Assembly: GCA_011682535.1 (NCBI GenBank)
Contig: JAACEL010000002.1
Span: 1 to 35,372, forward strand
Direction: 5' to 3'
From: Nitrospiraceae bacterium
Lineage (GTDB): Bacteria > Hydrogenedentota > Hydrogenedentia > Hydrogenedentales > SLHB01
Length of the DNA: 35,372 bases
Shown one piece after another: positions 13,090-33,392 of the stretch. The translations under genes and the position numbers were made by a program. Numbering within the stretch: the first letter of the stretch is position 1; the number at the start of each line of letters is the position of its first letter. A model generated the notes under the pieces. It had not been told where the DNA came from and did no database searches. It saw nothing but the letters and a program-made list of their open reading frames with translations.

Positions 13090-14310
13090 TCAGAACTGGC
13101 AGTTGATCCAGCCCGTCTCCTTATGGGTTTCACCGGCCTCGACACGGCGCACGCTTTCTTGCGTAGCCTCTACCAACTCACGCGTCTTCACGTCGCGTCC
13201 GCCCAGCCCGGCAATGTAACCGTGTACGGCCGGGCCGCCGCCGGTTCCATACAGTGCGGCCTTGACGTCGGCGCAGATCGGGCCCTGATAGCCGTAACTC
13301 AGGCTCTTGTCGAACACGACGACGAGCTTGGCGTTGCGCGTTCCTTCGAGCAATTCCCGCTCGGGGAAGGGACGGTACACGCGCACGGCGAGTACGCCCG
13401 CCTTGCAGCCCGCCTCGCGCAACGCGTCGACCGCCACGGTGGCCTCACTCGCAATGCTGCCCGCTGCCACCAGGAGCACGTCCGCGTCTTCGTTCTTGTA
13501 ACCCCAGGTCATCCCGCCCCAGCTCCGTCCGAAGTGGCGTCCATACTCTTCGTCCACTTCGACGGCCCGGGCGCGCGCGTTGCCGAGGGCCTCCTGGAGT
13601 TGATAGCGCAATTCCATGTAGCCGTGGCAGGTCTCCCCCACTTCGTTCGCGCGGGGGTCGGCCAAGGTGACCTGGTTGATGTTGCGGGGGTCGGCGGGGT
13701 CGAGGATCGTATGCGGAGTATAGGAGGGAAGGAACGCATCGACCTGCTCGGCCGTGGGCACCTCCACCGGCATGACGGTGTGCGACAGGATGTAACCGTC
13801 GTAACACACCATGACCGGCACATGCACCGACTCGGCGATCTTGTAGGCCTGGATGAGGTTGTCGATGATCTCCTGGTTGTTGCGGGCGTAGATCTGAATC
13901 CATCCGGCGTCACGTTGCGACATCGAATCCTGCTGATCGTTCAGCACGCTCCACGGCGCCGCCATGGCGCGATTGACGCAGCCCATCACCAGCGGCAACC
14001 GCGCGCCGGCCGCCCAGTGGATGAGTTCGCACATGTAGGCGAGGCCGTTGGCGCTGGTCGCGGTGAAGGCGCGCGCGCCGACGGTGGATGCGCCGATGCA
14101 GACGGACAGCGCGCTATGCTCACTTTCGACTGTGACGTACTCCGCCTCGAGCTGACCGCTCTCGACAAACCCCGACAGGTTCTCGGTGACCTGAGACTGC
14201 GGGGTGATGGGGTAAGCCGCGATAACCTGGACGCGGCACAGCTTCGCGCCGAGGGCCATGGCCTCGTTTCCAGTAATGATTGACGTCTCAGGCTGTTGCA
14301 CCGTGGCCAC
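13090..14310 (-). CDS. porA: Pyruvate/2-oxoacid:ferredoxin oxidoreductase alpha subunit
   Basis: TGNEAMA, AYPITPQS, VESEHSA, FTATSANGL, CYDGYILSH, RVYRPFP, AGLGGRD. Confidence 0.92.
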   Translation of the reverse strand: MATVQQPETSIITGNEAMALGAKLCRVQVIAAYPITPQSQVTENLSGFVESGQLEAEYVTVESEHSALSVCIGASTVGARAFTATSANGLAYMCELIHWAAGARLPLVMGCVNRAMAAPWSVLNDQQDSMSQRDAGWIQIYARNNQEIIDNLIQAYKIAESVHVPVMVCYDGYILSHTVMPVEVPTAEQVDAFLPSYTPHTILDPADPRNINQVTLADPRANEVGETCHGYMELRYQLQEALGNARARAVEVDEEYGRHFGRSWGGMTWGYKNEDADVLLVAAGSIASEATVAVDALREAGCKAGVLAVRVYRPFPERELLEGTRNAKLVVVFDKSLSYGYQGPICADVKAALYGTGGGPAVHGYIAGLGGRDVKTRELVEATQESVRRVEAGETHKETGWINCQF

Positions 14311-14313
14311 GGC

Positions 14314-14628
14314 TCAGTCCTCCTCCGTGCCGCCATCATCCGCGCTGGCCTCGGATTCCATCGTAATGGCGTCCGTGGGGCACTCCTCGGCGCAGATGCC
14401 GCATCCCTTGCAGTAATCGAGGTCGATGGTGATGGGGGCCTCGCGCGGGATCACGGCTTCGGGACAATAGAGCCAACAGCGGAAACACGCCGCGCCCTCC
14501 GTCTTGGCGGCAGCGCATCTGGCGTCGTCCACGACCGGCCGCTGGGTGCGCCAATCGCCCGTGTGACCTGCTTCCCCGGCGCTCGGCTTCGACATGGCCG
14601 ATTCGTGCCCGCAGTCTCTCGTGCCCAC
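14314..14628 (-). CDS. porD: 2-oxoacid:ferredoxin oxidoreductase delta subunit (2x[4Fe-4S])
   Basis: TGDWRTQRP, C..CFRCWLYCP, DYCKGCGICAEECP. GTG 14628 follows GGAGG (alternative ATG 14595). Confidence 0.88.
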   Translation of the reverse strand: MGTRDCGHESAMSKPSAGEAGHTGDWRTQRPVVDDARCAAAKTEGAACFRCWLYCPEAVIPREAPITIDLDYCKGCGICAEECPTDAITMESEASADDGGTEED

Positions 14629-14672
14629 TCTCCAACCTCCAACAGCCCGGGATGTCGCTCCGGTTTCAGGTT

Positions 14673-15293
14673 TCAGGAGCCGCCCGTTGCCAGCTTTGTG
14701 CGTTCGTAGGTTCGACGTGCCGCTTCGAAATTGCGCCGTGCAAGCTCCGCGGGGAACTTCTCGGCGATGGCTCTCTCTACACTCTCCAGCGTAACCAGTT
14801 CCGTAGCGCGGGCGAAGGCGCCCAGCATGGCAGTATTCACAATCACGGAACCGGCCACGACCAAATCCAATTCCTGTGCGATTCGGGTCGCGTCGGCTGT
14901 GGCGATCCGAAAGCTGCCGCTGCATTCGACCGCGGCGGGGTCGAGCGGGCTGTTGATTACCAGCCAGCCGTCTTCGATGAGGCCCTTGGTTGCGTCAGCC
15001 ACTTCGAGCAGCGTGTCGTCGAGTACGATCACCGCGCTCGGGTGTTCGATCTGTGAGAATGTGCGCAAGGGTTCGCGGGATAGGCGGTTTGATGCGGACA
15101 CCGGCGCGCCGCGCCGTTCCGCTCCGAAAGTAGGCGCTGAAGTCACCCCCTGAAAGCCGTCGTCGAACGCGGCTCGCGCCAGCAACTGCGCCGACGAAAT
15201 CGCCCCCTGGCCGCCCCGGCCGTGCCACCGAATCTCCACAATGCCCTTCAAAGAGCCAATATCCACACTCATTCCATCCATCCCTGGATCCAT
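14673..15293 (-). CDS. porC: 2-oxoacid:ferredoxin oxidoreductase gamma subunit
   Basis: EIRWHGRGGQGA, FGAERRGAPV, VNTAMLGA. Start could instead be 15281 or 15272. Confidence 0.92.
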   Translation of the reverse strand: MDPGMDGMSVDIGSLKGIVEIRWHGRGGQGAISSAQLLARAAFDDGFQGVTSAPTFGAERRGAPVSASNRLSREPLRTFSQIEHPSAVIVLDDTLLEVADATKGLIEDGWLVINSPLDPAAVECSGSFRIATADATRIAQELDLVVAGSVIVNTAMLGAFARATELVTLESVERAIAEKFPAELARRNFEAARRTYERTKLATGGS

Positions 15294-20128: not shown

Positions 20129-20436
20129 TGCTGTCTCCTCGTTCCTGAACGCCTAGAGCCCCCCGTAGCGTTTCGCGCATTCCTACCAAAGGGTCGGCCT
20201 TACTGCGAGTTTACGTTTTCTGATGTAATTTGTAAAGAGATTTTACCCTAAGTCGCCCTTTCAACACCAGTTAAATCGACGCAATCGGACCCCAACAGAG
20301 ACTGTTTGGTCCCTGTTTTTGGGTTCGGGCCTCTCCGTCGAGGGGGAGCGCAGGGCAGGTTACTGAGGAAACGATCGCCAGGCGGCGCGGTAGGATGAAG
20401 GATGTAGTACACGGCAGTAGTCTGGAGGATTCTTGT

Positions 20437-21075
20437 ATGACAAAGAGCGCAAACGCCCGGAATATGCTGTTGATGACCGCTGTGATCGTTGGTTTTGGAC
20501 TGGCCGGTATGGGATGTTCGCCAACGATCCCGTTCGCGTTCGACATCTCTATCAACTTGGGAACGTATGACTTGAGTGCCCTGCAGGTCTACGCGGGGCT
20601 GTTCGCCGGGGCCGAGATTCCCGAGGATTTCGAGGCGCCTGCGTTACCCGTGTGCAACTTGCCCACACAGGAGGAGATCCGGGAGCTGGTGAGCGAAGCC
20701 GCTGGCGATTGGGTGGCTAACCTCATTCATCTCAAGGCGATGAACCTGGTTGCGACCGAACTCACGGCCATATCGGGCGATTTCGACGACCTCACGTACC
20801 TCTCGTTGCAGTGGCAACCCAAACCGTTGGGTGGTGTGGCCCAGCCCTCCGTGAACCTCGGCACGGCCGATTCGGCGTTGGGGCTTGGCACGCAAATCCT
20901 GTTGGGGCCGCCTGTTCCGGTGGATTTCCTGGCACTGATCGAGGATGACGCCGCCAACCCGGCGACGGAGTGTGCTTCGTTGGGCATCGACGTGGACGGC
21001 GTCGTGCCCAGCACCGTCCCCGTGATGGCGGTGACGGTCACGTTGAACGTCGTTGGCGAGGTCCGGCTGCGCTGA
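20437..21075 (+). CDS. Hypothetical lipoprotein
   Basis: GGAGGA RBS + ATG 20437; basic N-terminus, hydrophobic core, LAGMG-C lipobox-like site; no family recognised. Confidence 0.7.
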   Translation: MTKSANARNMLLMTAVIVGFGLAGMGCSPTIPFAFDISINLGTYDLSALQVYAGLFAGAEIPEDFEAPALPVCNLPTQEEIRELVSEAAGDWVANLIHLKAMNLVATELTAISGDFDDLTYLSLQWQPKPLGGVAQPSVNLGTADSALGLGTQILLGPPVPVDFLALIEDDAANPATECASLGIDVDGVVPSTVPVMAVTVTLNVVGEVRLR

Positions 21076-21104
21076 CCGGCTGCCGCGGCCCATTCTTAGA
21101 TGAC

Positions 21105-21133
21105 TTGACGGTTGGTGCGGGGGGGCGCACAAT
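21105..21133 (+). promoter_or_regulatory. Putative sigma70 promoter TTGACG-17-CACAAT for the amr operon
   Basis: -35 at 21105-21110, -10 at 21128-21133; lies upstream of the GAGGTG Shine-Dalgarno and GTG 21154. Confidence 0.5.
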
Positions 21134-21153
21134 GGGGCGAGAGGTGTTGCTTC

Positions 21154-22125
21154 GTGACCGTCCAATGTGAATTGTGCCCCAAGAACTGCGTGATCGCGCC
21201 TGGCCAGAGCGGTGAGTGCCGGATCCGGGTGAATGTGGACGGGCAACTGCTGGCGGTCACCTGCGGGTACCCGTGCTCCGTGCACGTGGATCCCGTCGAG
21301 AAGAAGCCGCTGTACCATTTCCTGCCCGGGTCGAGCATTCTGTCCATTGCCACCGTTGGCTGCAATCTGCACTGCAAGAATTGTCAGAACTGGGAGATCT
21401 CGCAGGAGGATCCGGAAAATGTGCGGGCACGCGAGTTGCCGCCCGCCCTGTTGCCCGAACTGGCCCGCCAGCAGGACTGTGAATCGGTGGCCTACACCTA
21501 TACTGATCCCTGCGCCTACTATGAGTATGCGCTCGACGGTTCAATCGCCGTGCGCGATGCGGGGCTCCGGAATGTGTTGGTGACGGCGGCCTACTGCAAC
21601 CAGGAGCCCTGGAAACGCTTGTGCGCGTACACGGATGGCGCCAATATCGACATCAAATCGATATCGGACCAGTTTTACCGGGACATCTGCTCGGGCCGCC
21701 TGGCTCCGGTGTTGAATGCGTGCGTGGCGGCGAAGTCGATGGCGGTGATGGTGGAGATTACCAATCTGGTGATCCCAACGCTCAACGATTCGGACGATGA
21801 TCTGCGCGAGTTGTGCCGCTGGATCGTCGAGAATCTAGGCAAGGATACGCCGCTGCACTTCTCGCGGTTTTTCCCCCACTACCAGATGCGCAATCTCCCG
21901 CCGACGCCGCCTGAAACGCTCGACCGTGCCAGGGCCATCGCGCTGGCGGAGGGGTTGTACTACGTTTACATCGGCAACCTGTCGCGGCCGGAGGCCGAGC
22001 ACACGTACTGCCATTCCTGCAAGGCGGTCTTGGTGAAGCGCCGAGGCTACCGGGTACTGGAAAACACGGTTCGCGCGGGGGCCTGTCCCCAATGCGGCAC
22101 GGAGGTCTACGGCGTATGGCAATGA
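21154..22125 (+). CDS. amrS: AmmeMemoRadiSam system radical SAM enzyme
   Basis: N-terminal CELCPKNC...GECR, DPVEKKPLYHFLPG, radical SAM GCNLHCKNCQNWEISQ, AYTY, TNLVIP, TPLHFSRFFP, YVYIGN, C-terminal CHSC/CPQC. GTG 21154 is 7 nt after GAGGTG. Confidence 0.92.
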   Translation: MTVQCELCPKNCVIAPGQSGECRIRVNVDGQLLAVTCGYPCSVHVDPVEKKPLYHFLPGSSILSIATVGCNLHCKNCQNWEISQEDPENVRARELPPALLPELARQQDCESVAYTYTDPCAYYEYALDGSIAVRDAGLRNVLVTAAYCNQEPWKRLCAYTDGANIDIKSISDQFYRDICSGRLAPVLNACVAAKSMAVMVEITNLVIPTLNDSDDDLRELCRWIVENLGKDTPLHFSRFFPHYQMRNLPPTPPETLDRARAIALAEGLYYVYIGNLSRPEAEHTYCHSCKAVLVKRRGYRVLENTVRAGACPQCGTEVYGVWQ

Positions 22126-22292
22126 AACGCAGGAGCTTTATCGAGGCGGTGATCGCCGCCCCATGGGTGTGGCTGGCGGCATGCGTGGCGCCGCGCCGCT
22201 GGCGCGAGGCGGTGCGATCACGGCATTATCCCGGACCGGTGGCGCCGCTCGACCCGGCTGAGATCCGGCGGCGGGGCCGGTGGGCGGGGTGA
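22122..22292 (+). CDS. Small (56 aa) protein with twin-arginine motif and lipobox
   Basis: ATGA overlap with the amrS stop (alternative ATG 22116 after GGAGGT); MKRRSFI...WVWLAAC; fills the gap up to amrB/A. Confidence 0.65.
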   Translation: MKRRSFIEAVIAAPWVWLAACVAPRRWREAVRSRHYPGPVAPLDPAEIRRRGRWAG

Positions 22293-22310
22293 TTGATCGA
22301 GGGTGATGCG

Positions 22311-23885
22311 ATGCGGCGGCAACAGCGGGAGCACAGGGTTGGGGCGGCTAGTGTGGCGCGATTCGTGACGGTTTGGACGTTTATGGCGGTCGCGATCTCT
22401 TGCCGCGAGGAGGTGGCCGCCCGGGAACCGGAGGCCGGACCGGTGAAGCGCGTGCTGACGTCCGCCTTGGCGGGGCGTTGGTATACGGACGACGCGGCGG
22501 AGCTTTCCGAGGAACTGGACGGATACCTGGACTCGGTGGATGCGGAGCCGTTGGCGAACGTCCATGCGCTGATCCTGCCTCACGCGGGATACCGCTACTC
22601 CGGGCAGGTGGCCGCGTACGGTGTCAAACAGTTGGCGGGCCAGTCGTTCAAACGGGTCGTGGTGCTGGGGCCATCGCACCGTTTGCGGATGGCCAACCGG
22701 GCGAGCGTGCCGTCGGCCACGCACTATGCGACGCTGCTCGGCGAGGTCCCTCTCGACCTGGACTTCATCGCCGCTCTCAAACGTCATCCCCAGTTCGTGA
22801 CGGTGCCTGAAGCCCACGATGGCGAGCACAGTGTGCAGATCGAGGTGCCGTTACTGCAACGGGCGCTGGGCGCGTTCACGCTTGTGCCGATTGTGGTCGG
22901 CCAGCTTGACGCGGACACCGCGCGCGCGATGGGCGGGATTGTGAAGGGACTGTTGGGGCCGGACACGCTCGTCGTAGTCAGCAGCGACTTCGTCCACTAT
23001 GGGTCGCGGTTCGACTACGTGCCGTTCAAGGACGACGTGGCGGAGAACCTGAAGAAGCTCGATCTGGGCGCATGGGAGTTTATCGAGCGGCGCGATGTGG
23101 CCGGGTGGTATGACTACATTGACGAGACGGGCGCGACCATATGCGGCAGGCACGCGATTGCCGTGTTGCTGCCCATGTTGCCGGACGACTCATCCGCCCA
23201 TCTGCTCCGCTACGACACGTCGGGCCACATTACCAATGACTGGAGCAACTCGGTAAGCTACCTGAGCATCGCGTTCAGGTGTACGTGGGAAAGGGGAACA
23301 CCGATGGAAGCCGAGAAGCCGGACACCGCCACTCTCTCCGAGGACGAGAAGAAGCAGTTGCTGTCCTTAGCGCGGGGGACGTTGGAGTACTATGTCGAGC
23401 ATGACCGCATGCCCAAGCCGGCGGATCTGGGGGTAGCGATCACGGCGGGAATGGAGCAGGTGATGGGCGCGTTTGTGACGCTGCACGAGCACGGACGGCT
23501 GCGCGGCTGCATCGGCGAGATCTTCCCGCGGCGCCCGTTGTACGAGGCCGTCATGGACCACGCCGTGAATTCCGGCATGCGCGACCATCGGTTCACGCCA
23601 GTTGTGGCCGAAGAACTGCCCTTGCTGCACTACGAGATCTCCGCGTTGACGGTTCCCGAACCTGTCGCTTCCTATGAAGACATCGAGATCGGACGGCACG
23701 GCATGGTGATCGAGAAGAACGGGCGTACGGCGGTGTTCTTGCCCCAAGTCGCCCCGCAACAGGGCTGGGACATCGCCGAAACGCTCACTCAGTTGTCGCG
23801 TAAGGCCGGACTGCCCGGCGATGCCTGGAAGGAGGGGGCGGCGTTCACGGTTTTCGAGGCCATCGTGTTCGAGGAGGCGCAGTAG
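22311..23885 (+). CDS. amrB: AmmeMemoRadiSam protein B (MEMO1-like) fused to protein A (AMMECR1-like), with predicted lipoprotein signal
   Basis: MEMO motifs AGRWY, ILPHAGYRYSG, LGPSH, EHS, SSDFVHYG, TICG. AMMECR1 motifs GAFVTL, LRGCIG, DHRF, EISALT, FLPQV, KAGL. N-terminal basic/hydrophobic segment ending VAIS-C. Confidence 0.92.
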   Translation: MRRQQREHRVGAASVARFVTVWTFMAVAISCREEVAAREPEAGPVKRVLTSALAGRWYTDDAAELSEELDGYLDSVDAEPLANVHALILPHAGYRYSGQVAAYGVKQLAGQSFKRVVVLGPSHRLRMANRASVPSATHYATLLGEVPLDLDFIAALKRHPQFVTVPEAHDGEHSVQIEVPLLQRALGAFTLVPIVVGQLDADTARAMGGIVKGLLGPDTLVVVSSDFVHYGSRFDYVPFKDDVAENLKKLDLGAWEFIERRDVAGWYDYIDETGATICGRHAIAVLLPMLPDDSSAHLLRYDTSGHITNDWSNSVSYLSIAFRCTWERGTPMEAEKPDTATLSEDEKKQLLSLARGTLEYYVEHDRMPKPADLGVAITAGMEQVMGAFVTLHEHGRLRGCIGEIFPRRPLYEAVMDHAVNSGMRDHRFTPVVAEELPLLHYEISALTVPEPVASYEDIEIGRHGMVIEKNGRTAVFLPQVAPQQGWDIAETLTQLSRKAGLPGDAWKEGAAFTVFEAIVFEEAQ

Positions 23886-23901
23886 GACGTGGGCGGAAGA
23901 T

Positions 23902-23945
23902 CCCGAACGCCGGGTGGCGTATTGTGGCGCGCCCGAAGTGCTTGG
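23902..23945 (+). repeat. Dispersed intergenic repeat, copy 2
   Basis: CCCGAACGCCGGGTGGCGTATTGTGGCGCGCCCGAAGTGCTTGG, 42/44 identical to 7221-7264. Confidence 0.85.
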
Positions 23946-24059
23946 GTGCTCGAAAGATACGCTCAGCCACGCCGCCACCAAGCGGGTGAGAAGCGACAAC
24001 GCTATGCGACGTAAATGCTGCCGCCCGAAGGGTTCTGGCCGAACTCCTAGGCCTATCAG

Positions 24060-27000
24060 ATGATTGGGGGAAGGGGAGTCTCGGCGGAACGGCCGGCGGG
24101 CCGGATGATCGCGGTCGCGGGGCTGGGCTTCTTCGCGCTTGTCGCGCAGACGCTGTTGTTCCGCGATTTCTTCACGGTCTTCGAAGGCAGTGAGCTGGGG
24201 GTGGGCGCCTTCTTTGGTTCGTGGTTCATCTGGGTGGCGTTGGGGGCGTTGGCGGGGCGGATACCGTCGCGCTTACACGACGCGGCCGCCGGGCATGTGC
24301 GCGTGTTGGCCTTGCTGTACATTCCCGCCTTCGTCTTGCAGCACAGCGTCGTGTTGCACACGCGCGAACTGGCCGGGGTCGAGGCCTACGAACTGTTTCC
24401 CTTCGCCCCGATGCTGATTGCGTCCTTCGCGGTGAACGCCCCAACCAGTTTTCTCACCGGGTCGTTGTTCGCGCTCGCGTGCCGGTGGGTGGCGGAGCAA
24501 TCGAAGCATGCCGTATCGCGCGTTTATATCAGCGAGACGCTGGGGGCATGCGCGGGTGGAGTGTTCGTGACGGTGCTGCTCGTGTGGGGACTGCCGGGCG
24601 AGGCCGTGTTTGCGGCGGCGGCTTGGGCTCTGTGCGCGGTCCTGGGCGTTTCGGCGATGCTGACCGGTTGCCGCCTCCGCGCGGGGCTGGCGATTATGGC
24701 CGTAGTGGGGATGCTTGGGGCTGGGCTGTTCTGCGGCGGCGTGGGTGCGCGCTGGGCGGACTACGAGCAGCGCGCGGCCTGGTCGCGGTTGTTACCGGCG
24801 GAACAATACGGCGGGAGCTTCTCGACGGCGCAGTCGCGGTATCTGTACGGCTGGCGTGAGAATCAACTCATGGTGATCTCGGGCGGCGGCGTGAGCGAGA
24901 CGTTCCCCGGGGATGATCAGGCGGGGGCGGTCGTCGCGTTGCACATGGCGCAGCGGCCCGAGGCGCGCAACGTGTTGGTGTTCGGCGAAAACGCCCTGGG
25001 CATTTGCGCGGCGTTCAAGATGCTTCCGCAGATCCAGCACGTGACCTGGCTGCATCCGGATCGGGCCTATCCCAGGACGTTGATGGAAGCGTTGGCGGAC
25101 GAGGGAAGATCCGCGGCCGGGCCGGACGAGATTCCCCAAAAGGACATTCGCACGTTTGCGCGTGAAACGCAGCGCCGGTTCGATCTGATTGTCTTGAACT
25201 TGCCCGACATGACGACGCTCGTGCTGAACCGCTACGCCACCGTGGAGTTTTTCACGCTGATGGCGTCGATTCTGGAGACAGATGGACTTGTGTCCGTGCG
25301 GGTGTCGGGGGGCGAGAACTATGTCGGCGGCGAGCTGGCGTTGCTGGGCGCTTCGATGCTCGACACGCTCGATGCGGTGTTTCTGAAGACGATCCTGACG
25401 CCTGGTGAGGACACGTGGTTCCTGGCTGCGAACGGCGGCGGCCTGATGGAGCGCCCGGAGTGGCTGGCGCGGCGCTATGCGGGGATCGAGGGCGCCAGTG
25501 CGGTGTATCCGCCGGAGGGTGTTCGCGGGTTGTACCGGCCGGGCCGGGCGGCGTTCCAGATGGACGCGTACCGCGCGGCGATGGCCGAGACGCCGCGGAA
25601 TCTGCTGCGTAACACTGATCGCTCGCCGAAGGCGCTGGCGTATAACCTGTTGCTGGCTGTTAAGCAGGCCGAGTGGCGGCGGTTGGCCCGGTCGCTGCCT
25701 GCGTTGTGGCGGGTGGGACCCTGGCTGTTGGCTGGGCCGGTACTGCTATACGCCCTGCTGCGTCTGGTGTTTTTGCTCAAGACACGGTGGACGACGGGTG
25801 ACGACGGCGTGACCGATTTGAAGTTCCTGGTGTTTACGATGGGTGTGGCGAGCATCTCGCTGAGCATCGTTCTCATGTTTCTGTATCAAGTGCAGTTCGG
25901 GACGTTGTTCCTGCACATGGGTGTCATTACGGCGCTCTTCATGGCTGGTTCGCTTGTCGGAGCGATGGGAAGCGCGCGCTTCCTCACGCGATGGCCCCGG
26001 GGGCCGCTGTTGGTGTGCCTGACCGGTCACCTGTTGCTGTTTGGGGGCGTGGCCTTGCTGCCCGGCGCCGCTTCGCGCGGGACGTACGCCGGACTGTTCG
26101 CGCTGTGCGGTGCGTTCACCGGCGTGTACTTTCCTATCGCGGCGGCGCGGCTGGCGGCGGCCGGGGCGCCGGTGCGTGCGAGCGGTGCGGGACTCGAGAT
26201 GCTCGACCATCTCGGCGGAGCCGTGGGGGCTTCGCTGACGGGATTGGTCCTGCTGCCGATGTGGGGCGCCACGGCGGCCCTGGGCGTGCTGGCCCTGTTG
26301 GTGGGCGTCAACGGTCCCTTGCTGGCATTGAGCCGGACACCCAAGACGCGGGGAGACGCGTTTGACCGCCTGGTGCGTCCAGCCGCCTACGCGACCGCAG
26401 GGGTGGCCATCTATCTGCTGGGTGTGTCGGCCGCGGTGGCACATGGCGAGCCGGCCACAATGGGCGATCCGGTGGTCGATGCGGCGCGCACCATGGCGGG
26501 GGCCACCGAACTGGAGTCCAAGGAAGCTGTGCTGCCGGATGGGACGGCGGTGGTCTACTTCGCCGTGACCGAGTCCGACGACCGCGCCAAGGGCTATGTG
26601 TTCCCCTGCGACCCGTGGGCGTCGAAGGTGTACGGTTATCTTGGCCCTATTCAACTCGCGGCCTACACCGACGCGCAGGGCGTGCTGCTGGATTATGCGG
26701 TGTTGCGTTCGTATGAGACGCCATCTTATCTGTACCACGTGGAATCGTTTCACGACCGCTTGATGGGAGCGAGTCTGTTCACCGCGGGGCCATTCGACGG
26801 CGTGGACGCCGTCAGCGGGGCAACGATCACCGACGTGGCGATTCGCAGGACGCTTACGTTGGCGGGGCAGGGCTTTGCCCGGGACGTGCTGGGCGTGAAC
26901 GGCGAACTCGAGCCTGCACCCGCGCCAAGCGCGGCCGACTTCTTTGGTAGCACCGGCTTTCGTGATTTCGCCGTGTTGGCCGCACTCACGCTCGCCGCCA

Positions 27001-27935
27001 TACTCCACCGGTATCGGCCCCGTGTGTGGTCGCGGCGCGCGATCCTGCTGACGAGTCTGTTGGCGGCGGGCCTGTGGCTCAACCTGCAGTACTCGACGCA
27101 ACAGGTGATATCCCTGGCGGGATTGACCCTGGGCGGTGTGGTGCTCAATGGCCCCTTCTTTCTATTGGTCGTTGTGCCGGTGGTTGTGGTCCTGTTCGGG
27201 AATGTGTACTGCGGGTACGTGTGTCCCTTTGGCGCGCTGCAGGAGCTTGTGGGCGACCTGGCGCCCAAGCGTCTGCGCGGCGGTGTCGACAAGCAAGCTT
27301 GGCGCTACGGCCGGGCGGTGAAATATGGGCTGCTGTTCCTTGTGTTGGCCGCCTTCGCGCTCACGCGCGACTATGGCCGTCTCGAGGCCGACCCCCTGGT
27401 CAGTGTGTTCGGCATGGCTCGGGAGCGGCCCGTCGTCATCATCGTTGTGTTGAGCGTGGCGCTTTCGCTCTTCTACAAGCGCTTCTGGTGCCGGAATCTG
27501 TGCCCGGCGGGGGCGTTTCTCTCCTGGCTGAACGGCGCGCGGCTCCTGGGGCGCCTGATCCCCCGGCGTTACCCGGAGCGGTGCGACCTGGGCGTGCGGA
27601 GCAATGCCGAACTGGACTGCATCATGTGCGACCGCTGCGGCTGGACGCGCCCGGAGACCTCCCGAAGCAGGCGCGTGCTGATGGTCCATGGCGTGTGCGT
27701 GGCGGCGGCCGCGGCGATCTTCGCGGGCGCGATGTTCTCAGGAGAGCCCCCGGTCGAGGCGGGATCGGCCGTGCCCGGCATCGGCGAAGCCGATGTGCCC
27801 ACGGGGGCCGGTCAAGCGCGTGACGTGGACGCGGAACGTATCCGGACACTGATCGACCAAGGCCACCTGTCCGGCCGCGAGGCCGAGTACTATGGGCCGG
27901 TATCCGCCGACGGCCCGGCGCCGGACATGCCTTGA
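24060..27935 (+). CDS. Polytopic membrane protein: MFS-like TM / spermidine-synthase-like domain / TM / FMN-binding (flavinylation) domain / NosR-NapH-type 4Fe-4S domain
   Basis: QTLLFRDFFTVFEGSEL and VYISETLGA (membrane SpeE-fusion type); FDLIVLNLPD...NRYATVEFF; GYLGPI, ETPSY, DAVSGAT; YCGYVCPFGALQE, FWCRNLCPAGA, CIMCDRC. Start may be 24105. Confidence 0.8.
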   Translation: MIGGRGVSAERPAGRMIAVAGLGFFALVAQTLLFRDFFTVFEGSELGVGAFFGSWFIWVALGALAGRIPSRLHDAAAGHVRVLALLYIPAFVLQHSVVLHTRELAGVEAYELFPFAPMLIASFAVNAPTSFLTGSLFALACRWVAEQSKHAVSRVYISETLGACAGGVFVTVLLVWGLPGEAVFAAAAWALCAVLGVSAMLTGCRLRAGLAIMAVVGMLGAGLFCGGVGARWADYEQRAAWSRLLPAEQYGGSFSTAQSRYLYGWRENQLMVISGGGVSETFPGDDQAGAVVALHMAQRPEARNVLVFGENALGICAAFKMLPQIQHVTWLHPDRAYPRTLMEALADEGRSAAGPDEIPQKDIRTFARETQRRFDLIVLNLPDMTTLVLNRYATVEFFTLMASILETDGLVSVRVSGGENYVGGELALLGASMLDTLDAVFLKTILTPGEDTWFLAANGGGLMERPEWLARRYAGIEGASAVYPPEGVRGLYRPGRAAFQMDAYRAAMAETPRNLLRNTDRSPKALAYNLLLAVKQAEWRRLARSLPALWRVGPWLLAGPVLLYALLRLVFLLKTRWTTGDDGVTDLKFLVFTMGVASISLSIVLMFLYQVQFGTLFLHMGVITALFMAGSLVGAMGSARFLTRWPRGPLLVCLTGHLLLFGGVALLPGAASRGTYAGLFALCGAFTGVYFPIAAARLAAAGAPVRASGAGLEMLDHLGGAVGASLTGLVLLPMWGATAALGVLALLVGVNGPLLALSRTPKTRGDAFDRLVRPAAYATAGVAIYLLGVSAAVAHGEPATMGDPVVDAARTMAGATELESKEAVLPDGTAVVYFAVTESDDRAKGYVFPCDPWASKVYGYLGPIQLAAYTDAQGVLLDYAVLRSYETPSYLYHVESFHDRLMGASLFTAGPFDGVDAVSGATITDVAIRRTLTLAGQGFARDVLGVNGELEPAPAPSAADFFGSTGFRDFAVLAALTLAAILHRYRPRVWSRRAILLTSLLAAGLWLNLQYSTQQVISLAGLTLGGVVLNGPFFLLVVVPVVVVLFGNVYCGYVCPFGALQELVGDLAPKRLRGGVDKQAWRYGRAVKYGLLFLVLAAFALTRDYGRLEADPLVSVFGMARERPVVIIVVLSVALSLFYKRFWCRNLCPAGAFLSWLNGARLLGRLIPRRYPERCDLGVRSNAELDCIMCDRCGWTRPETSRSRRVLMVHGVCVAAAAAIFAGAMFSGEPPVEAGSAVPGIGEADVPTGAGQARDVDAERIRTLIDQGHLSGREAEYYGPVSADGPAPDMP

Positions 27936-27991: not shown

Positions 27992-29374
27992 ATGATCGAT
28001 CTGCTCAAGCACGGTGAGAAAATTCTGTCGACGGCGTTGGCCAACGGCGGAGGACTCGCGGAGATATTTCTAGAAGACACGTCGCGCACGTCGATTCGTT
28101 TCGAAGACGGCAAGGCGGAGCGTGTGGTCTCGGGGCGGGATCTCGGCGCGGGCATTCGCATTCTGACGGGCGACCGTACCCTGTTCGCCCACACCAATGA
28201 CGTGTCGCTGGCCGGATTGATCCAAGCCGCGAAGACGGTGGCCGGGGGCGCAAGCGAGGAACGCGGCACGTATTCCTTCGACTTCCAACCCGAGCGTTTT
28301 GAAATGCCGGTGGGCGTGGCGCCAGGAAGCGTGTCCACGCCTCAGAAGCTCGGCCTGATCACGGCGGCCGACAGCGCCGCGCGCGCGTTCGACGGACGCG
28401 TGGTGCAGGTCAAGGTCATGTATGGCGACTCCGTGCGCCGTGTCCTGATTGTCAACTCCGACGGACGTTTCGTGGAAGATGTCCGCCCGCAGATTATCCT
28501 GATGGTCGAGGCCGTGGCCGCCGATGGGAGCGTGATCCAGACCGGCCGTCGCCCGCTGGGGGGCGCTTTGGGTTTTGAACTGTTCGACGAGACCGATCCG
28601 CAGGACATTGCCGAGGCCGCGGCCAGGCAGGCGTGCCTCATGCTCGACGCGCAACCGGCGCCCACGGGACAGATGCCCGTCGTCATCGGCAGCGAAGCGG
28701 GCGGCACGATGATCCACGAAGCGGTCGGCCACGGACTTGAAGCGGATCACATCGACAAGGGCATGTCCAAGTACTGCGGGCGTCTCAACGAGATGATTGC
28801 CGTGCCCGAGGTTACCGTGGTCGACGACGCCACCCTGGCGCGCAAGCGCGGCACGTTCAACGTCGATGACGAAGGCACGCCTGCACAGCGGACGGTGCTG
28901 ATTGACCAGGGCCGCCTCGTGAGTTTCCTGCACGACCTCAAGTCGGCGCGCAAGATGGAGATCGCGCCCACGGGCAACGGCCGGCGGGCGTCCTACCAGG
29001 ACAAGCCGATCCCTCGCATGACGAACACGTTCATTGCGCCCGGCGATGCCGATCCCAAGGAAATACTCGCTTCGACGGACAAGGGGCTGTATGTGCGCAA
29101 GATGGGCGGTGGCCAAGTCGATCCGTTGAACGGCGATTTCGTGTTCGAGGTCAGCGAGGGCTACCTGATCGAGAACGGCGTGGCCGAAACGCCCGTGCGT
29201 GGCGCGACGCTCATCGGTAACGGCCCGGATGTGATTCAGAATATCGAGTTGGTGGGTAACGATCTCGGTTTCGACATAGGCACGTGCGGGAAGGGCGGCC
29301 AAGGCGCGCCCGTCAGCGACGCCCAGCCCACTATCCGCATCCGCGAACTAACCGTCGGCGGCACGGCACAATAA
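27992..29374 (+). CDS. tldD: TldD/PmbA family metalloprotease (catalytic TldD type)
   Basis: GAGIRI, HEAVGHGLEAD (HExxxH), DDEG, TGNGRR, PRMTNT, GGGQV, VRGATLIG, CGKGGQ..PVSDAQPT. Confidence 0.93.
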   Translation: MIDLLKHGEKILSTALANGGGLAEIFLEDTSRTSIRFEDGKAERVVSGRDLGAGIRILTGDRTLFAHTNDVSLAGLIQAAKTVAGGASEERGTYSFDFQPERFEMPVGVAPGSVSTPQKLGLITAADSAARAFDGRVVQVKVMYGDSVRRVLIVNSDGRFVEDVRPQIILMVEAVAADGSVIQTGRRPLGGALGFELFDETDPQDIAEAAARQACLMLDAQPAPTGQMPVVIGSEAGGTMIHEAVGHGLEADHIDKGMSKYCGRLNEMIAVPEVTVVDDATLARKRGTFNVDDEGTPAQRTVLIDQGRLVSFLHDLKSARKMEIAPTGNGRRASYQDKPIPRMTNTFIAPGDADPKEILASTDKGLYVRKMGGGQVDPLNGDFVFEVSEGYLIENGVAETPVRGATLIGNGPDVIQNIELVGNDLGFDIGTCGKGGQGAPVSDAQPTIRIRELTVGGTAQ

Positions 29375-30470: not shown

Positions 30471-31541
30471 ATGTACAACGGACTGAATCTTAGCCTGGGT
30501 AACCTCTGCCTGCTGTCCGACGCGAAGACGCGCTCGATCTCGCCCGAGAATTTCACGGGTGAAAAGGGCAAGGGCGGCATGGCCACCGAAGGCACCGGCG
30601 CCAAGTGCGCGCGCGACCTTGGGCAAGGCTGGAAGATCTCGCCGAGCGTCGCCGTCAAGGCCGGCGAGGTCTTCGAACTGGCCGTCATCGAAGGCCCGGG
30701 GGCCATCCAGCAGATCTGGATGACGCCCACCGGCAACTGGCGCTTCAGCATCTTGCGCATCTACTGGGACGGCGAAGAAGAGCCGAGCGTGGAATGCCCT
30801 ATCGGCGATTTCTTCGGGATGGGGTGGGGACAGTACGCCCATCTGAACTCGCTGCCCGTCTGTGTCAACCCCGGCAGCGCGTTCAACTGCTATTGGGAGA
30901 TGCCGTTCCGCAAGCACTGCCGCATGACGTTCGAAAACGTGGCCGACGAAGACATGACGCTCTATTACCAGATCAACTATGCCCTTACGGAGGTGGCCCA
31001 AGACGCCGCCTACTTCCACGCGCAGTGGCGGCGCACCAATCCGCTCGAGTACCTGGACGTGTACACTATTGTCGACGGCATCCAGGGTAAGGGCCAGTAC
31101 GTAGGCACCTACATGGCGTGGCAGGTCAACAGCACTGGGTGGTGGGGCGAAGGCGAGATCAAGTTCTTCATGGACGGCGATGACGAGTATCCCACGATCT
31201 GCGGCACGGGTACGGAAGACTACTTCTGCGGCTCCTACAACTTCGACCGCAACGGCCAGTACACCGAGTTCTCGACGCCGTTCGCGGGGCTGCCGCAGGT
31301 CATCCGTCCCGACGGCACCTATCAATCGCAGCAGCGCTTCGGTCTCTACCGCTGGCACATCATGGACCCGGTCCGTTTCGAGAGCGACCTGAAAGTCACC
31401 ATGCAGGCGCTGGGCTGGCGTTCCTACGGCCGCTACCTGCCACTGAAGGACGACATCGCCTCGGTGGCCTACTGGTACCAGGCCGAGCCCCACGGCGCGT
31501 TCCCGAAACTGCCGGAGCGTGACCTCCTGGAGAACATCTAA
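30471..31541 (+). CDS. DUF2961 / glycoside hydrolase family 172 protein (paralog 1)
   Basis: RSISPENFTGEKGKGG, GPGAIQQIW, LRIYWD, PIGDFFG, FNCYWEMPF, YFHAQWRR, WWGEGE, GTGTEDYF, YRWHIMDP, DIASVAYWYQ. Confidence 0.93.
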   Translation: MYNGLNLSLGNLCLLSDAKTRSISPENFTGEKGKGGMATEGTGAKCARDLGQGWKISPSVAVKAGEVFELAVIEGPGAIQQIWMTPTGNWRFSILRIYWDGEEEPSVECPIGDFFGMGWGQYAHLNSLPVCVNPGSAFNCYWEMPFRKHCRMTFENVADEDMTLYYQINYALTEVAQDAAYFHAQWRRTNPLEYLDVYTIVDGIQGKGQYVGTYMAWQVNSTGWWGEGEIKFFMDGDDEYPTICGTGTEDYFCGSYNFDRNGQYTEFSTPFAGLPQVIRPDGTYQSQQRFGLYRWHIMDPVRFESDLKVTMQALGWRSYGRYLPLKDDIASVAYWYQAEPHGAFPKLPERDLLENI

Positions 31542-31648: not shown

Positions 31649-32743
31649 ATGACTAATGGACTGAATATGGGACTCGGCAATCTTTCCCGCCTTTTCGGGG
31701 GGGTCACCCGCTCGCTGTCGGCCGAGAACATCAACGGAGAAAAAGGACGCGGCGGCATGGCCACCGAAGGACGCGGATCTTTCAACGCCCGCGGCCTCGG
31801 CGGGCGTCCGTGGAAAGTGTCCCCTGCCGTCGACATCGAAGCCGGCGACACCTACCTCATGGCCGATGTGGACGGCCCCGGCGCCATCCAGCAAGTCTGG
31901 ATCACGATCACGAAGGCTTGGCGTCACAGCGTTCTCAGAATCTACTGGGACGACGAAGACACGCCCAGCGTCGAAACGCCGATCGGTGATTTCTTCGGCA
32001 TGGGCTGGCAGGAATACGCCCATCTCAACTCCATTCCCGTGACGGTGAACCCCGGCAGCGCCTTCAACTGCAACTGGGTGATGCCGTTCCGCAAACACTG
32101 CAAGATGACCATCGAGAATCTCGGCGACGAGAAGATCACCCTCTTCTATCAGGTGAACTACGCCCTGGCCGAGATCCCCGATCGCGCCGCCTATTTCCAT
32201 GCCCAGTTTCGGCGCACCAACCCGTTGCCCTACAAACAGGACTACACCATCGTCGATGGTATCCAAGGCAAGGGACACTACGTCGGCACGTACATGGCGT
32301 GGCAGGCTAACAACAAGGGCTGGTGGGGCGAAGGCGAGATCAAGTTCTTCATGGACGGTGACCAGGAGTTTCCCACCATCTGCGGCACCGGTACGGAGGA
32401 CTACTTTTGCGGTTCGTATAACTTCGAGCCCAATTGGCAGGTGACGGGTTTCCTCGGGAATTACAAGGAGTTCTCGACGCCCTACGCCGGCCTGCATCAG
32501 GTCATCCGGCCCGACGGCACGTTCAACTCGCAACAGCGTTTCGGCATGTATCGCTGGCACGTCATGGATCCAATCCGTTTCGAGGAGGATCTGCGCGTCA
32601 CGATGCAGGCGTTGGGCTGGCGGTCCAACGGACGCTATCTGCCGTTGCAGGACGACATTGCCTCGGTGGCCTATTGGTATCAGGCCGAGCCGCACGCGCC
32701 GTTCCCCCAGTTTCTCCATCGCGACGACCTGGAAGTGATCTGA
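31649..32743 (+). CDS. DUF2961 / glycoside hydrolase family 172 protein (paralog 2)
   Basis: Same motif set as paralog 1, including WWGEGE and GTGTEDYF. Confidence 0.93.
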   Translation: MTNGLNMGLGNLSRLFGGVTRSLSAENINGEKGRGGMATEGRGSFNARGLGGRPWKVSPAVDIEAGDTYLMADVDGPGAIQQVWITITKAWRHSVLRIYWDDEDTPSVETPIGDFFGMGWQEYAHLNSIPVTVNPGSAFNCNWVMPFRKHCKMTIENLGDEKITLFYQVNYALAEIPDRAAYFHAQFRRTNPLPYKQDYTIVDGIQGKGHYVGTYMAWQANNKGWWGEGEIKFFMDGDQEFPTICGTGTEDYFCGSYNFEPNWQVTGFLGNYKEFSTPYAGLHQVIRPDGTFNSQQRFGMYRWHVMDPIRFEEDLRVTMQALGWRSNGRYLPLQDDIASVAYWYQAEPHAPFPQFLHRDDLEVI

Positions 32744-32744
32744 G

Positions 32745-33392
32745 ATGCCCCAACGCCCGCTCGTCGTATTCGACATCGATGGCACGCTGCTCGAGACGGA
32801 TCGCGTGACGGTGCCCGCTGTGCAGCGCACCTTCGCGGCCTACGGACTGCCCGAGCCCGATGCGGGGAAGATCTGCTCGTTCTTCGGCGCGCCAGTCAAG
32901 GACTACCTGGACTGGCTCGCCGAGCTATGCCCGGAGGGGAAGGTGGACGAGATCGTCGACAAGACCAACCGGCTCGAATTGGACCTGATCGCCGAAGAAG
33001 GCCGGCTGTATCCCGGTGTGGAGGCCATGCTGGCCGGTTTGCGCAGTGATGGCTACACGCTGGCCCTATGCTCCAACGGTCCTGAAGACTACGTGGCCGA
33101 GTTCGTGCGAGCGTATGAAATGGAGCGATTCGTGAGCGTCGTTCAGGCGCGTGGCGACCGGCCCGAGGGCAAGCGCGTGATGCTCGGCGAGATTCTTGAA
33201 GCGCTGCACGAGCGTCCGGTGGTTGTCGTCGGCGATCGTCACGACGACGTCGATGCGGCGCACGCGCATGGCGCCCTGGCGATTGGCGCACGCTATGGGT
33301 TCGGGGCGGACGAAGAACTGCGTGAGACCGATGCCCAGGTTGATGCGGCCGATGAAATCGGCATAGTGGTGGCGCGGTTGGTGAAGGGATAG
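32745..33392 (+). CDS. HAD family hydrolase (phosphoglycolate phosphatase-like)
   Basis: VFDIDGTLL, LYPGV, CSN, K, VGDRHDD, YGFG. Confidence 0.9.
   Translation: MPQRPLVVFDIDGTLLETDRVTVPAVQRTFAAYGLPEPDAGKICSFFGAPVKDYLDWLAELCPEGKVDEIVDKTNRLELDLIAEEGRLYPGVEAMLAGLRSDGYTLALCSNGPEDYVAEFVRAYEMERFVSVVQARGDRPEGKRVMLGEILEALHERPVVVVGDRHDDVDAAHAHGALAIGARYGFGADEELRETDAQVDAADEIGIVVARLVKG

Follow-up and report, generated by a model that had tools for sequence, protein, structure and literature searches.

Does this AmmeMemoRadiSam system act outside the cell membrane? A four-gene block with a small twin-arginine protein and a flavin/Fe–S membrane protein

On which side of the cytoplasmic membrane does an AmmeMemoRadiSam system work? 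Its components Memo (AmrB) and AMMECR1 (AmrA) occur in conserved form from archaea to humans and have been tied to disease, and the canonical set is taken to be cytoplasmic and soluble, made up of no more than the amr proteins themselves. To our knowledge neither Memo nor AMMECR1 has a defined substrate, and their radical S-adenosylmethionine (SAM) partner AmrS is an orphan enzyme. The question is raised by a 35,372-nucleotide stretch of a Hydrogenedentota genome (contig JAACEL010000002.1, assembly GCA_011682535.1), all of which was analysed and is here called the window. Four co-oriented open reading frames (ORFs) lie on its plus strand (21112–27935): amrS, a 56-residue ORF, an amrB/amrA fusion and the gene for a 1291-residue membrane protein. 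A preliminary description of the letters alone proposed that this variant acts outside the inner membrane. On balance we favour that reading, in the form of a periplasmic AmmeMemoRadiSam system in which AmrS would be exported by the twin-arginine translocation (Tat) pathway as a hitchhiker, electrons would arrive through a NosR-like flavin mononucleotide (FMN) module, and SAM would possibly be handled by a fused major facilitator superfamily (MFS)/SpeE module. It is supported by a signal on the AmrB/A fusion, by the predicted outward position of the FMN domain and by conserved gene linkage, all localisation being in silico.

The four-gene block and its conservation

The four ORFs proved to be real and co-oriented, as first described. 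AmrS scores 366.6 bits against TIGR04337 (cut-off 220, NCBIfam profile search) and matches Radical_SAM in Pfam (1.5e-14), which bears out its initial identification. The CX3CX2C radical SAM motif reads CNLHCKNC, its cysteines being invariant in 31 sequences, and further cysteines form an N-terminal C-x2-C-x3-C-x9-C group and a C-terminal four-cysteine ribbon. The longest amrS ORF begins at TTG 21112. The start is likely to be GTG 21154 instead, because 30 AmrS orthologues begin within a few residues of the first cysteine (just before the C-x2-C-P motif) and a GAGAGG lies eight bases upstream of this GTG.

The amrB/amrA fusion starts about 190 nucleotides after amrS. Both of its families are well above their cut-offs (207 against 26 for TIGR04336; 153.7 against 99 for TIGR04335), and its N-terminus is basic, then hydrophobic, then reads AISC, so that the lipoprotein-type signal noted at the outset stands for the window's own protein. 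It also holds up among orthologues: a hydrophobic segment (15-residue Kyte–Doolittle mean of at least 1.6) precedes Memo in 41 of 42, and a lipobox-like cysteine, by a loose pattern, is found in 20; two loci with an unaligned Memo N-terminus were left out of this count. The genes are tightly spaced, with one correction to the preliminary description: a gap of 175 nucleotides precedes the membrane gene.

Scanning one genome per species gave 77 loci (numbered with the prefix L), in which the window's proteins were then looked for. In 39 of them the membrane protein has a relative of at least 35% identity including the SpeE part, and 35 of these could be assessed, having the N-terminus and at least 3.2 kb upstream. 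Four loci at contig ends (L016, L018, L024 and L030) were dropped, two of which, L016 and L024, show amr genes as far as they reach. The expectation that the membrane gene is kept beside amr genes was confirmed across phyla: upstream on the same strand, amrS is present at 30 of the 35 loci, Memo plus AMMECR1 at 29 and all three families at 27. The loci span Hydrogenedentota, Planctomycetota, Nitrospirota, Desulfobacterota, Lentisphaerae, Kiritimatiellia, Verrucomicrobiota and others. Three have amrS only (L025, L029 and L053), and two have Memo/AMMECR1 only (L026 and L037). All three amr families are also present beside the distant full-length relatives of L034, L035, L039 and L045 (26–32% identity), and in the control, loci matching only the NapH-like part, amr genes occur at one of 23 (L073, assigned below to a second class).

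In each of the five genomes whose membrane gene has no amrS next to it, there is a TIGR04337 match above cut-off elsewhere. This AmrS is window-like in four (58–67% identity), three with a strict-motif small ORF after it and two with Memo in the flank. No other neighbour of the window's block (the 226-residue ORF, TldD/PmbA, DUF2961, pyruvate:ferredoxin oxidoreductase or leucine-rich repeat genes) is conserved in related loci; thus the conserved unit comprises exactly four genes.

Several of these genomes carry, in addition, a separate canonical amr set without signals. An example is L085 (G001:C99, minus strand), where a 1076-residue frame with an AmrS match is followed on the same strand by AMMECR1 and Memo. 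From its sequence this looks like a canonical set without export signals, perhaps a triple fusion, in a genome that also holds an exported set.

The small twin-arginine protein and a second gene arrangement

The start codon of the small ORF overlaps the amrS stop as ATGA. The encoded protein begins MKRRSF, continues with a hydrophobic stretch and LAAC, and ends in WAG. All 31 aligned copies share R3, R4, F6, W54 and the terminal G56, and A30 is almost invariant; the rest is variable, with a mean column identity of 30%. Of the Tat and lipobox features read into this ORF in the preliminary description, the Tat motif RR-x-F therefore stands (31/31) and the lipobox cysteine of LAAC, which is not conserved, falls away. 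In 33 of 36 window-type cases a strict-motif ORF is found at the amrS stop, variant ORFs occupy the same place in the other three, and the gene follows amrS even where amrB/A is not alongside (L025, L029 and L053). An exhaustive search with the family profile gave 405 cluster representatives at E ≤ 0.001, of which 144 reach E ≤ 1e-10, where a word-indexed search gave 11 proteins. The best 150 of the 405 are all 56–96 residues long and aligned to the last residue. No Pfam or NCBIfam family matches the small-protein family; one orthologue has a weak match to TIGR02811. Three members, from two orthologue clusters, are named ‘hypothetical protein’ by NCBI.

Complex prediction pairs this protein with AmrS. 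Given the AmrS alignment and residues 22–56 of the small-protein alignment, three runs reached ipSAE values of 0.87, 0.87 and 0.86, the best of three controls 0.02, on a scale whose calibration (58 of 80 solved complexes attain the mark, as do 2 of 110 mismatched pairs) is only rough for our own alignments. The runs agree in at least 98% of contacts, with a partner pLDDT of at least 83. The predicted interface takes in residues 25–56 of the small protein, nearly the whole mature peptide (~119 contacts). On AmrS it includes residues 31–39, 42–47, 86–95 and 123–125, together with 78–79 beside the cluster motif. The model supports binding of the small protein to AmrS; a substrate peptide could score alike. 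The window's AmrS lacks roughly the first 10 profile positions of TIGR04337, and the small protein was also considered as a detached N-terminal strand of canonical AmrS; this idea was not borne out, hhalign aligning only the Tat signals (probability 13%).

A second class of loci places the signal on the enzyme itself. It comprises ten loci, mostly from Acidobacteria (L046–L052, L054 and L073 among them), nine of which were aligned. Class II AmrS is 366–398 residues long and no small ORF follows its gene. The N-terminal extension reads, for example, D-R-R-S-F-L, then a hydrophobic stretch and A-x-A, and RR-x-F is kept in 9 of 9. For the L048 protein, TIGR04337 aligns only from residue 51 onwards, and TAT_signal_seq gives 17.2 bits (cut-off 16.7). 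These long proteins, N-terminal extension included, are recorded as called proteins in public collections, some under the name ‘AmmeMemoRadiSam system radical SAM enzyme’ or ‘pyruvate formate lyase activating enzyme’. The L048 and L073 operons encode a NapH-like polyferredoxin, a DUF6599 protein with a lipoprotein signal, a DUF362 protein (S-R-R-D-F-L), the Tat-signal AmrS and a signal-bearing AmrB/A. A free-standing membrane SpeE adjoins on the other strand in L047–L052 and L054. The Tat DUF362 and lipoprotein DUF6599 genes, which lie between the NapH-like gene and amrS (L048, 15185–16945; L073, 11512–13118), may replace FMN_bind as the periplasmic electron carrier of class II.

Two gene arrangements thus bring together amr proteins with export signals, a conduit of the NapH type and a membrane protein of the MFS/SpeE type. 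We take this recurrence of the same modules as strong evidence, at the level of gene order and motifs, that they cooperate and that AmrS is Tat cargo. The window's AmrS, a signal-less Fe–S enzyme, could be exported because the small Tat protein is predicted to bind it and because the sister class fuses the Tat signal to AmrS; a system at the outer face of the membrane is the simplest account that covers both classes. The preliminary description gave the small protein no role, whereas here it is predicted to be the key Tat piece; the Tat signal on class II AmrS is likewise new. The hitchhiker concept, in which a signal-less protein is exported by a twin-arginine partner, is set out in a passage of PMC10924467. 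The window's pair resembles the known cases (hydrogenase small and large subunits, DmsAB, TIGR02811) in pairing a signal-less cofactor protein with a Tat-signal partner; it differs in that the escort has only 56 residues and belongs to no described family, and in that the cargo would be a radical SAM enzyme.

The main rival to export of AmrS keeps the enzyme cytoplasmic and makes the small Tat protein its substrate, modified for example near W-x-G, exported by Tat and used by AmrB/A and the membrane protein as a peptide-derived cofactor or envelope factor. SAM and low-potential reductants are cytoplasmic, the window's AmrS has no signal, an enzyme and its substrate would also be predicted to form a tight complex, and the invariant C-terminal tryptophan and glycine could mark the modified site. 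The HXS system offers a precedent: in the portion of PMC13128918 that describes it, radical SAM enzymes work in the cytoplasm and nothing but their product leaves it. HXS and the window's system share a radical SAM enzyme with a periplasm-bound protein; they part company at the sister class here, which puts a Tat signal on the enzyme and has no small ORF, making the enzyme the cargo. This rival can explain the window's class but not the class with a Tat-signal AmrS. Moreover, a downstream gene with an ATGA overlap would suit a stoichiometric subunit better than a precursor, the predicted interface spans residues 25–56 instead of setting a single residue in the active site, and the mature part is poorly conserved beyond A30, W54 and G56. 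We therefore consider a peptide substrate unlikely.

The membrane protein and its predicted topology

The 1291-residue protein consists, in order, of an MFS-like half, a SpeE fold, a second MFS-like half, an FMN_bind domain and a NapH/NosR-type module with two CX3CP motifs. Fer4_5 matches it in two stretches (7.4e-18; 64.7 bits, cut-off 22), and FMN_bind (PF04205) at 23.5 bits (cut-off 22). The flavinylation and CxxxCP motifs of the preliminary description were borne out. DAVSGAT, residues 916–922, fits the pattern D-x-x-[ST]-G-A-[ST]; the CX3CP motifs lie at residues 1051–1056 and 1144–1149, each after a transmembrane (TM) helix, and a four-cysteine group at residues 1175–1193. In 38 of 38 aligned relatives G920, A921, T922 and all ten motif cysteines are invariant. 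C1051, C1055, P1056, C1144 and C1148 are strictly kept and P1149 nearly so, and the charged residues E159, D716 and R35 within helices and D334 of the SpeE-like domain are invariant too.

Partial matches connect the protein to NosR (1.7e-16), NapH and RnfG, far below equivalog cut-offs (59.7 against 1000 for NosR; 40.1 against 213 and 34.6 against 234 for NapH). It shares with NosR, NapH and RdhC (PceC) TM helices, an FMN_bind domain with S/T-G-A-T, helices each followed by CX3CP and a cytoplasmic cysteine group. It departs from them in its MFS/SpeE fusion, in having one four-cysteine group instead of a C-terminal polyferredoxin, and in its partner, an amr set and not NosZ, Nap or a dehalogenase.

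The SpeE-like domain is weak by single sequence: the PRK03612 (membrane SpeE) score is 25.2 bits where the cut-off is 472, and searching the PDB with the domain's single sequence returned nothing meaningful, so that a profile was needed. The family profile found the aminopropyltransferase 1uir (2e-9), RnfG (1.9e-8) and the flavinylated FMN domain 8p2b (FMN4; 1.7e-8). An AF2 (AlphaFold2) model of residues 1–1200 has a pLDDT of 83.8 and a pTM of 0.81. In Foldseek, spermidine or thermospermine synthases make up all of its best matches (1uir 2.9e-8; TMt 0.54–0.68 over ~270–310 columns), and the SpeE fold is genuine, upholding the domain's first assignment. Aminopropyltransferase activity cannot be assumed. 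Like the membrane spermidine-synthase-like proteins of the PRK03612 type (presumably those that NCBI names ‘fused MFS/spermidine synthase’), the protein has N-terminal helices and then a SpeE fold, with MFS_1 matches in homologues; unlike them it has an altered glycine loop and a domain set between TM7 and TM8, predicted to face outwards.

A word-indexed search found 273 relatives. The best 120 are 1017–1399 residues long, 40–55% identical and cover 75–100% of the query; among their names are Hydrogenedentes, Planctomycetota and Pseudomonadota, ‘4Fe-4S binding protein’ and ‘spermidine synthase’ (from JGI for some). Residues 1200–1291 form an extra TM helix and a tail of about 60 residues with a conserved-looking acidic/aromatic end, for which no family matched. 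About half of the listed relatives cover only ~91% of the query (~1170–1260 residues), and by their coverage may lack this helix.

Which side each domain faces was judged from charges counted over 38 sequences, on a model with the N-terminus inside, TM1–7, SpeE outside, TM8–15 and FMN outside. In the MFS/SpeE part (N-terminal 800 residues), lysine plus arginine amount to 0.19 per residue in inside loops against 0.09 outside, and in the NapH part to 0.19 against 0.06. The alternation by loop is clean: 0.0 for loop 1–2, 2.9 for 2–3, 0.2 for 5–6, 1.5 for 6–7, 0.8 for 9–10, 3.3 for 10–11, 0.0 for 13–14 and 4.6 for 14–15; in the NapH block, loop 16–17 has 3.3 against 0.4 for 17–18. If the FMN domain lies outside, the NapH block takes its known form, in which both CX3CP motifs come after a helix at the cytoplasmic side, and the inside loops are basic. 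According to part of a flavinylation survey (PMC8238504), ApbE flavinylates FMN_bind domains with S/T-G-A-T, which in Rnf, Nqr, NosR and RdhC are on the outer side. The positive-inside counts, the NapH/NosR-type CX3CP order and the homology to RnfG and the flavinylated FMN domain all lead us to predict an extracytoplasmic FMN_bind domain; a cytoplasmic one, which would have spoken against the original proposal, is not what they indicate. The free-standing class II membrane SpeE protein has the same charge pattern and a basic C-terminal tail.

An internal repeat relates TM1–6 to TM9–14 (173 collinear columns, E = 6e-4, probability 28%). MFS_1 matches 7 of 7 homologues tested at E ≤ 2e-5, one of them above cut-off, and leaves the window's own protein unmatched; its positions 2 to ~190, one six-helix half, fit the block after TM8 in six of the seven and other positions fit in the seventh. 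In outline the core resembles a 6+6 bundle of the MFS kind whose central loop has taken up TM7, the SpeE-like domain and TM8. Such an insertion would put the SpeE-like domain outside, and we think it probable that the domain does face outwards.

The membrane protein could also serve another enzyme than AmrS. On this account the system is extracytoplasmic but the membrane protein serves Memo or an unrelated envelope reaction, its FMN conduit reducing the metal centre of Memo or a substrate; the SpeE-like domain would be a true alkyl-transferase for the envelope molecule concerned, or only structural, and AmrS would leave with its SAM bound and reuse it as a cofactor. Memo is akin to metal-dependent extradiol dioxygenases (a class II AmrB/A orthologue matches LigB at 9.5e-6), modules of the NosR/RdhC type serve periplasmic enzymes other than radical SAM enzymes, and L026 and L037 have amrB/A beside the membrane gene without amrS; the 790-residue class II membrane SpeE of L048, moreover, is a strong Spermine_synth match (PF01564, 9.7e-29). 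At L025, L029 and L053, however, it is amrS and the small gene that precede the membrane gene, without amrB/A, so the linkage is not specific to AmrB/A. A radical SAM enzyme outside the membrane would also need a reductant, and the membrane protein is the block's only redox module. Service to Memo or another reaction in place of AmrS thus seems quite unlikely to us.

Proposed mechanism, points against it and surroundings

Under the favoured reading, AmrS would fold and gain its Fe–S clusters in the cytoplasm, as Fe–S proteins in general do, and would there bind the 56-residue protein supplied by coupled translation. The pair would leave by Tat through RR-x-F, AmrS as the hitchhiker, and would probably be tethered at the outer face of the membrane; the AmrB/A fusion would follow by its own lipoprotein-type signal. 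The NapH/NosR-type module would take electrons at the cytoplasmic face, through the four-cysteine group and the two CX3CP motifs, to covalent FMN at T922, and from there, by analogy with NosR, RdhC and Rnf-type roles, to AmrS, at its radical SAM cluster, or to Memo, at its metal site. In the most speculative step, the MFS core and the periplasmic SpeE-fold domain would carry SAM out, hold it, or clear away its cleavage products. The exported enzymes would then modify an envelope or exported molecule. Only tentatively do we go further and place radical SAM catalysis itself in the periplasm, with MFS/SpeE presenting SAM, low-potential electrons passing to FMN and AmrS modifying an envelope lipid, glycan or protein jointly with lipoprotein Memo–AMMECR1, whose native chemistry would thereby be revealed.

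The genome offers some of what this would need. The assembly is 93% complete and TatC is present. A genome search for apbE, proposed in the preliminary description, found one ApbE (9e-60; L001, G000:C379, ORF 1447–2571, minus strand). Three FMN_bind proteins, the membrane protein and two others, should be flavinylated outside the cell. Pyruvate:ferredoxin oxidoreductase genes in the window suggest an anaerobe with reduced ferredoxin, and so with low-potential electrons available. Quinol is too weak to reduce a radical SAM cluster, so a low-potential cytoplasmic donor has to be assumed.

That need for a stronger donor than quinol is one of a number of points that weigh against an exported system. 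We know of no SAM in the periplasm. The window's AmrS has no signal peptide, and the mature part of the small protein has no homology to AmrS detectable by hhalign. At E ≤ 1, TAT_signal_seq (TIGR01409) picks up only 9 of the 31 small proteins, and the window's copy is not among them. The stretch of about 85 residues that precedes the ApbE domain contains no hydrophobic, signal-like segment. The 175-nucleotide gap separates amrB/A from the membrane gene, and at 3 of the 35 loci (L002, L021 and L031) no amr genes stand beside it. The SpeE-like domain reads GENALG in place of the glycine loop G-G-G-[DE]-G, and Spermine_synth (PF01564) does not match the window's protein. Where topology requires a TM13/TM14 hairpin, DSSP assigns one continuous helix in both AF2 models (residues 705–749; 734–785 in class II); if 705–749 were a single pass, the SpeE-like domain would lie on the opposite side from the FMN domain. 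A Hessa-type hydrophobicity scale applied to residues 705–757 did not separate one membrane helix from two.

A further rival would make the signals annotation artefacts or inactive remnants, and the block an ordinary cytoplasmic amr set beside an unrelated membrane oxidoreductase. Localisation is a sequence inference throughout, the window's small protein fails TAT_signal_seq, and the gap before the membrane gene would fit. Yet the signals are kept across phyla (AmrB/A 41/42, small-protein RR-x-F 31/31, class II AmrS 9/9) and the extended N-termini belong to called proteins. The linkage, at 27 to 30 of 35 loci against 1 of 23 controls, recurs in a different order in class II, and several genomes hold a signal-less canonical set besides (L085). 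An artefact is accordingly very improbable.

Set against canonical AmmeMemoRadiSam, the window's system has all three families above cut-off and adjacent, with CX3CX2C and LRGCIG intact; it differs in the AmrB/A signal, in the Tat partner or own signal of AmrS and in the linked 1291-residue membrane protein. Full-text literature searches found no exported AmmeMemoRadiSam, Tat-signal radical SAM enzyme or such membrane fusion. Related observations, perhaps on Memo contexts linked to membranes, may stand in the chief comparative work on the gene contexts of Memo (Burroughs et al. 2019, J Biol Chem 294:10211). The main text of the flavinylation survey (PMC8238504) does not contain ‘radical SAM’, ‘Memo’, ‘AMMECR1’, ‘spermidine’ or ‘MFS’.

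If the favoured reading is true, action at the outer face of the cytoplasmic membrane narrows the search for a substrate to envelope or exported molecules, and the named helpers (Tat escort, FMN/Fe–S conduit and MFS/SpeE module) give testable handles on Memo and AMMECR1. Radical SAM chemistry, which is not known to occur outside the cytoplasmic membrane, would take place there. A Tat-exported radical SAM enzyme, with SAM and low-potential electrons supplied across the membrane, would be new cell biology.

Table 1. Features of the window (positions 1–35,372), with the block and its neighbours in order of position.
Feature	Coordinates	Strand	Basis or remark
Pyruvate:ferredoxin oxidoreductase alpha-like subunit and ferredoxin-domain subunit	13090..14925	−	
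Leucine-rich repeat protein, 1515 aa	15581..20128	−	Five InlB B-repeat-like (Flg_new_2), three IPT/TIG, CarboxypepD_reg
226-aa ORF	20395..21075	+	No Pfam/NCBIfam match; not conserved
Promoter-like site TTGACG, 17 nt, CACAAT, just upstream of amrS	21105..21133	+	9/12 positions match; not above chance
amrS (AmmeMemoRadiSam radical SAM enzyme, 323 aa)	21154..22125	+	TIGR04337; likely start, from 30 orthologues
56-aa twin-arginine-signal protein, proposed Tat escort of AmrS	22122..22292	+	RR-x-F, C-terminal W-x-G; conserved orthologues
amrB/amrA fusion	22311..23885	+	ATG 22311
AmrB/A signal peptide, lipoprotein type	22311..22403	+	Basic n-region, hydrophobic stretch, A-I-S-C
Memo (AmrB) domain	22464..23270	+	PF01875 7.2e-57, residues 58–326; TIGR04336
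AMMECR1 (AmrA) domain, LRGCIG motif	23364..23870	+	PF01871 1.8e-49, residues 358–526; TIGR04335
1291-aa multi-domain membrane protein	24060..27935	+	Alternative start ATG 24105; 273 relatives; AF2 model
TM1–TM7: TM1–6 MFS-like half, TM7 leading outwards (predicted)	24093..24737	+	AF2 helices, positive-inside counts, repeat with TM9–14
SpeE-like (aminopropyltransferase-fold) domain, predicted periplasmic	24792..25619	+	Profile, fold, conservation
TM8 inwards, TM9–14 second MFS-like half, TM15 outwards (predicted)	25716..26450	+	AF2, charges, MFS_1 matches
FMN_bind domain, predicted periplasmic	26457..26894	+	PF04205; DAVSGAT at 26805–26825 (T922)
NapH/NosR-type Fe–S module, predicted cytoplasmic face	26937..27638	+	CX3CP 27210–27227 and 27489–27506; four-Cys 27582–27638
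Extra C-terminal TM (~residues 1208–1230) and tail	27660..27935	+	Hydrophobic peak at residue 1218
TldD/PmbA-family metallopeptidase gene	27992..29374	+	57 nt after membrane gene
DUF2961 paralogue	30471..31541	+	~1e-98
DUF2961 paralogue	31649..32743	+	~1e-98
HAD-family hydrolase	32745..33392		

The promoter scan gave 2 sites against 1.1 expected by chance, and the terminator scan was likewise not above chance, with no terminator between the block's genes. A search of 20100–24200 for RNA families and riboswitches had 0 matches at E ≤ 1.

Elsewhere in the assembly a second AmrS paralogue (L081, G000:C345:1-1023, minus strand) scores 268 bits against TIGR04337, has no signal and is cut by the contig end; the large ORF beside it resembles a prolyl-tRNA synthetase. 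The one AMMECR1 gene found in the assembly is the window's.

Upstream of the block, the 226-residue ORF immediately precedes amrS, and beyond it the 1515-residue leucine-rich repeat protein is probably a surface protein; it is not conserved beside the amr block, apart from a distant match in L023. On the other side, the TldD/PmbA gene occurs in no related locus and is for this reason probably unrelated to the block. It is followed by the tandem DUF2961 paralogues and, directly after the pair, the gene for the HAD-family hydrolase.

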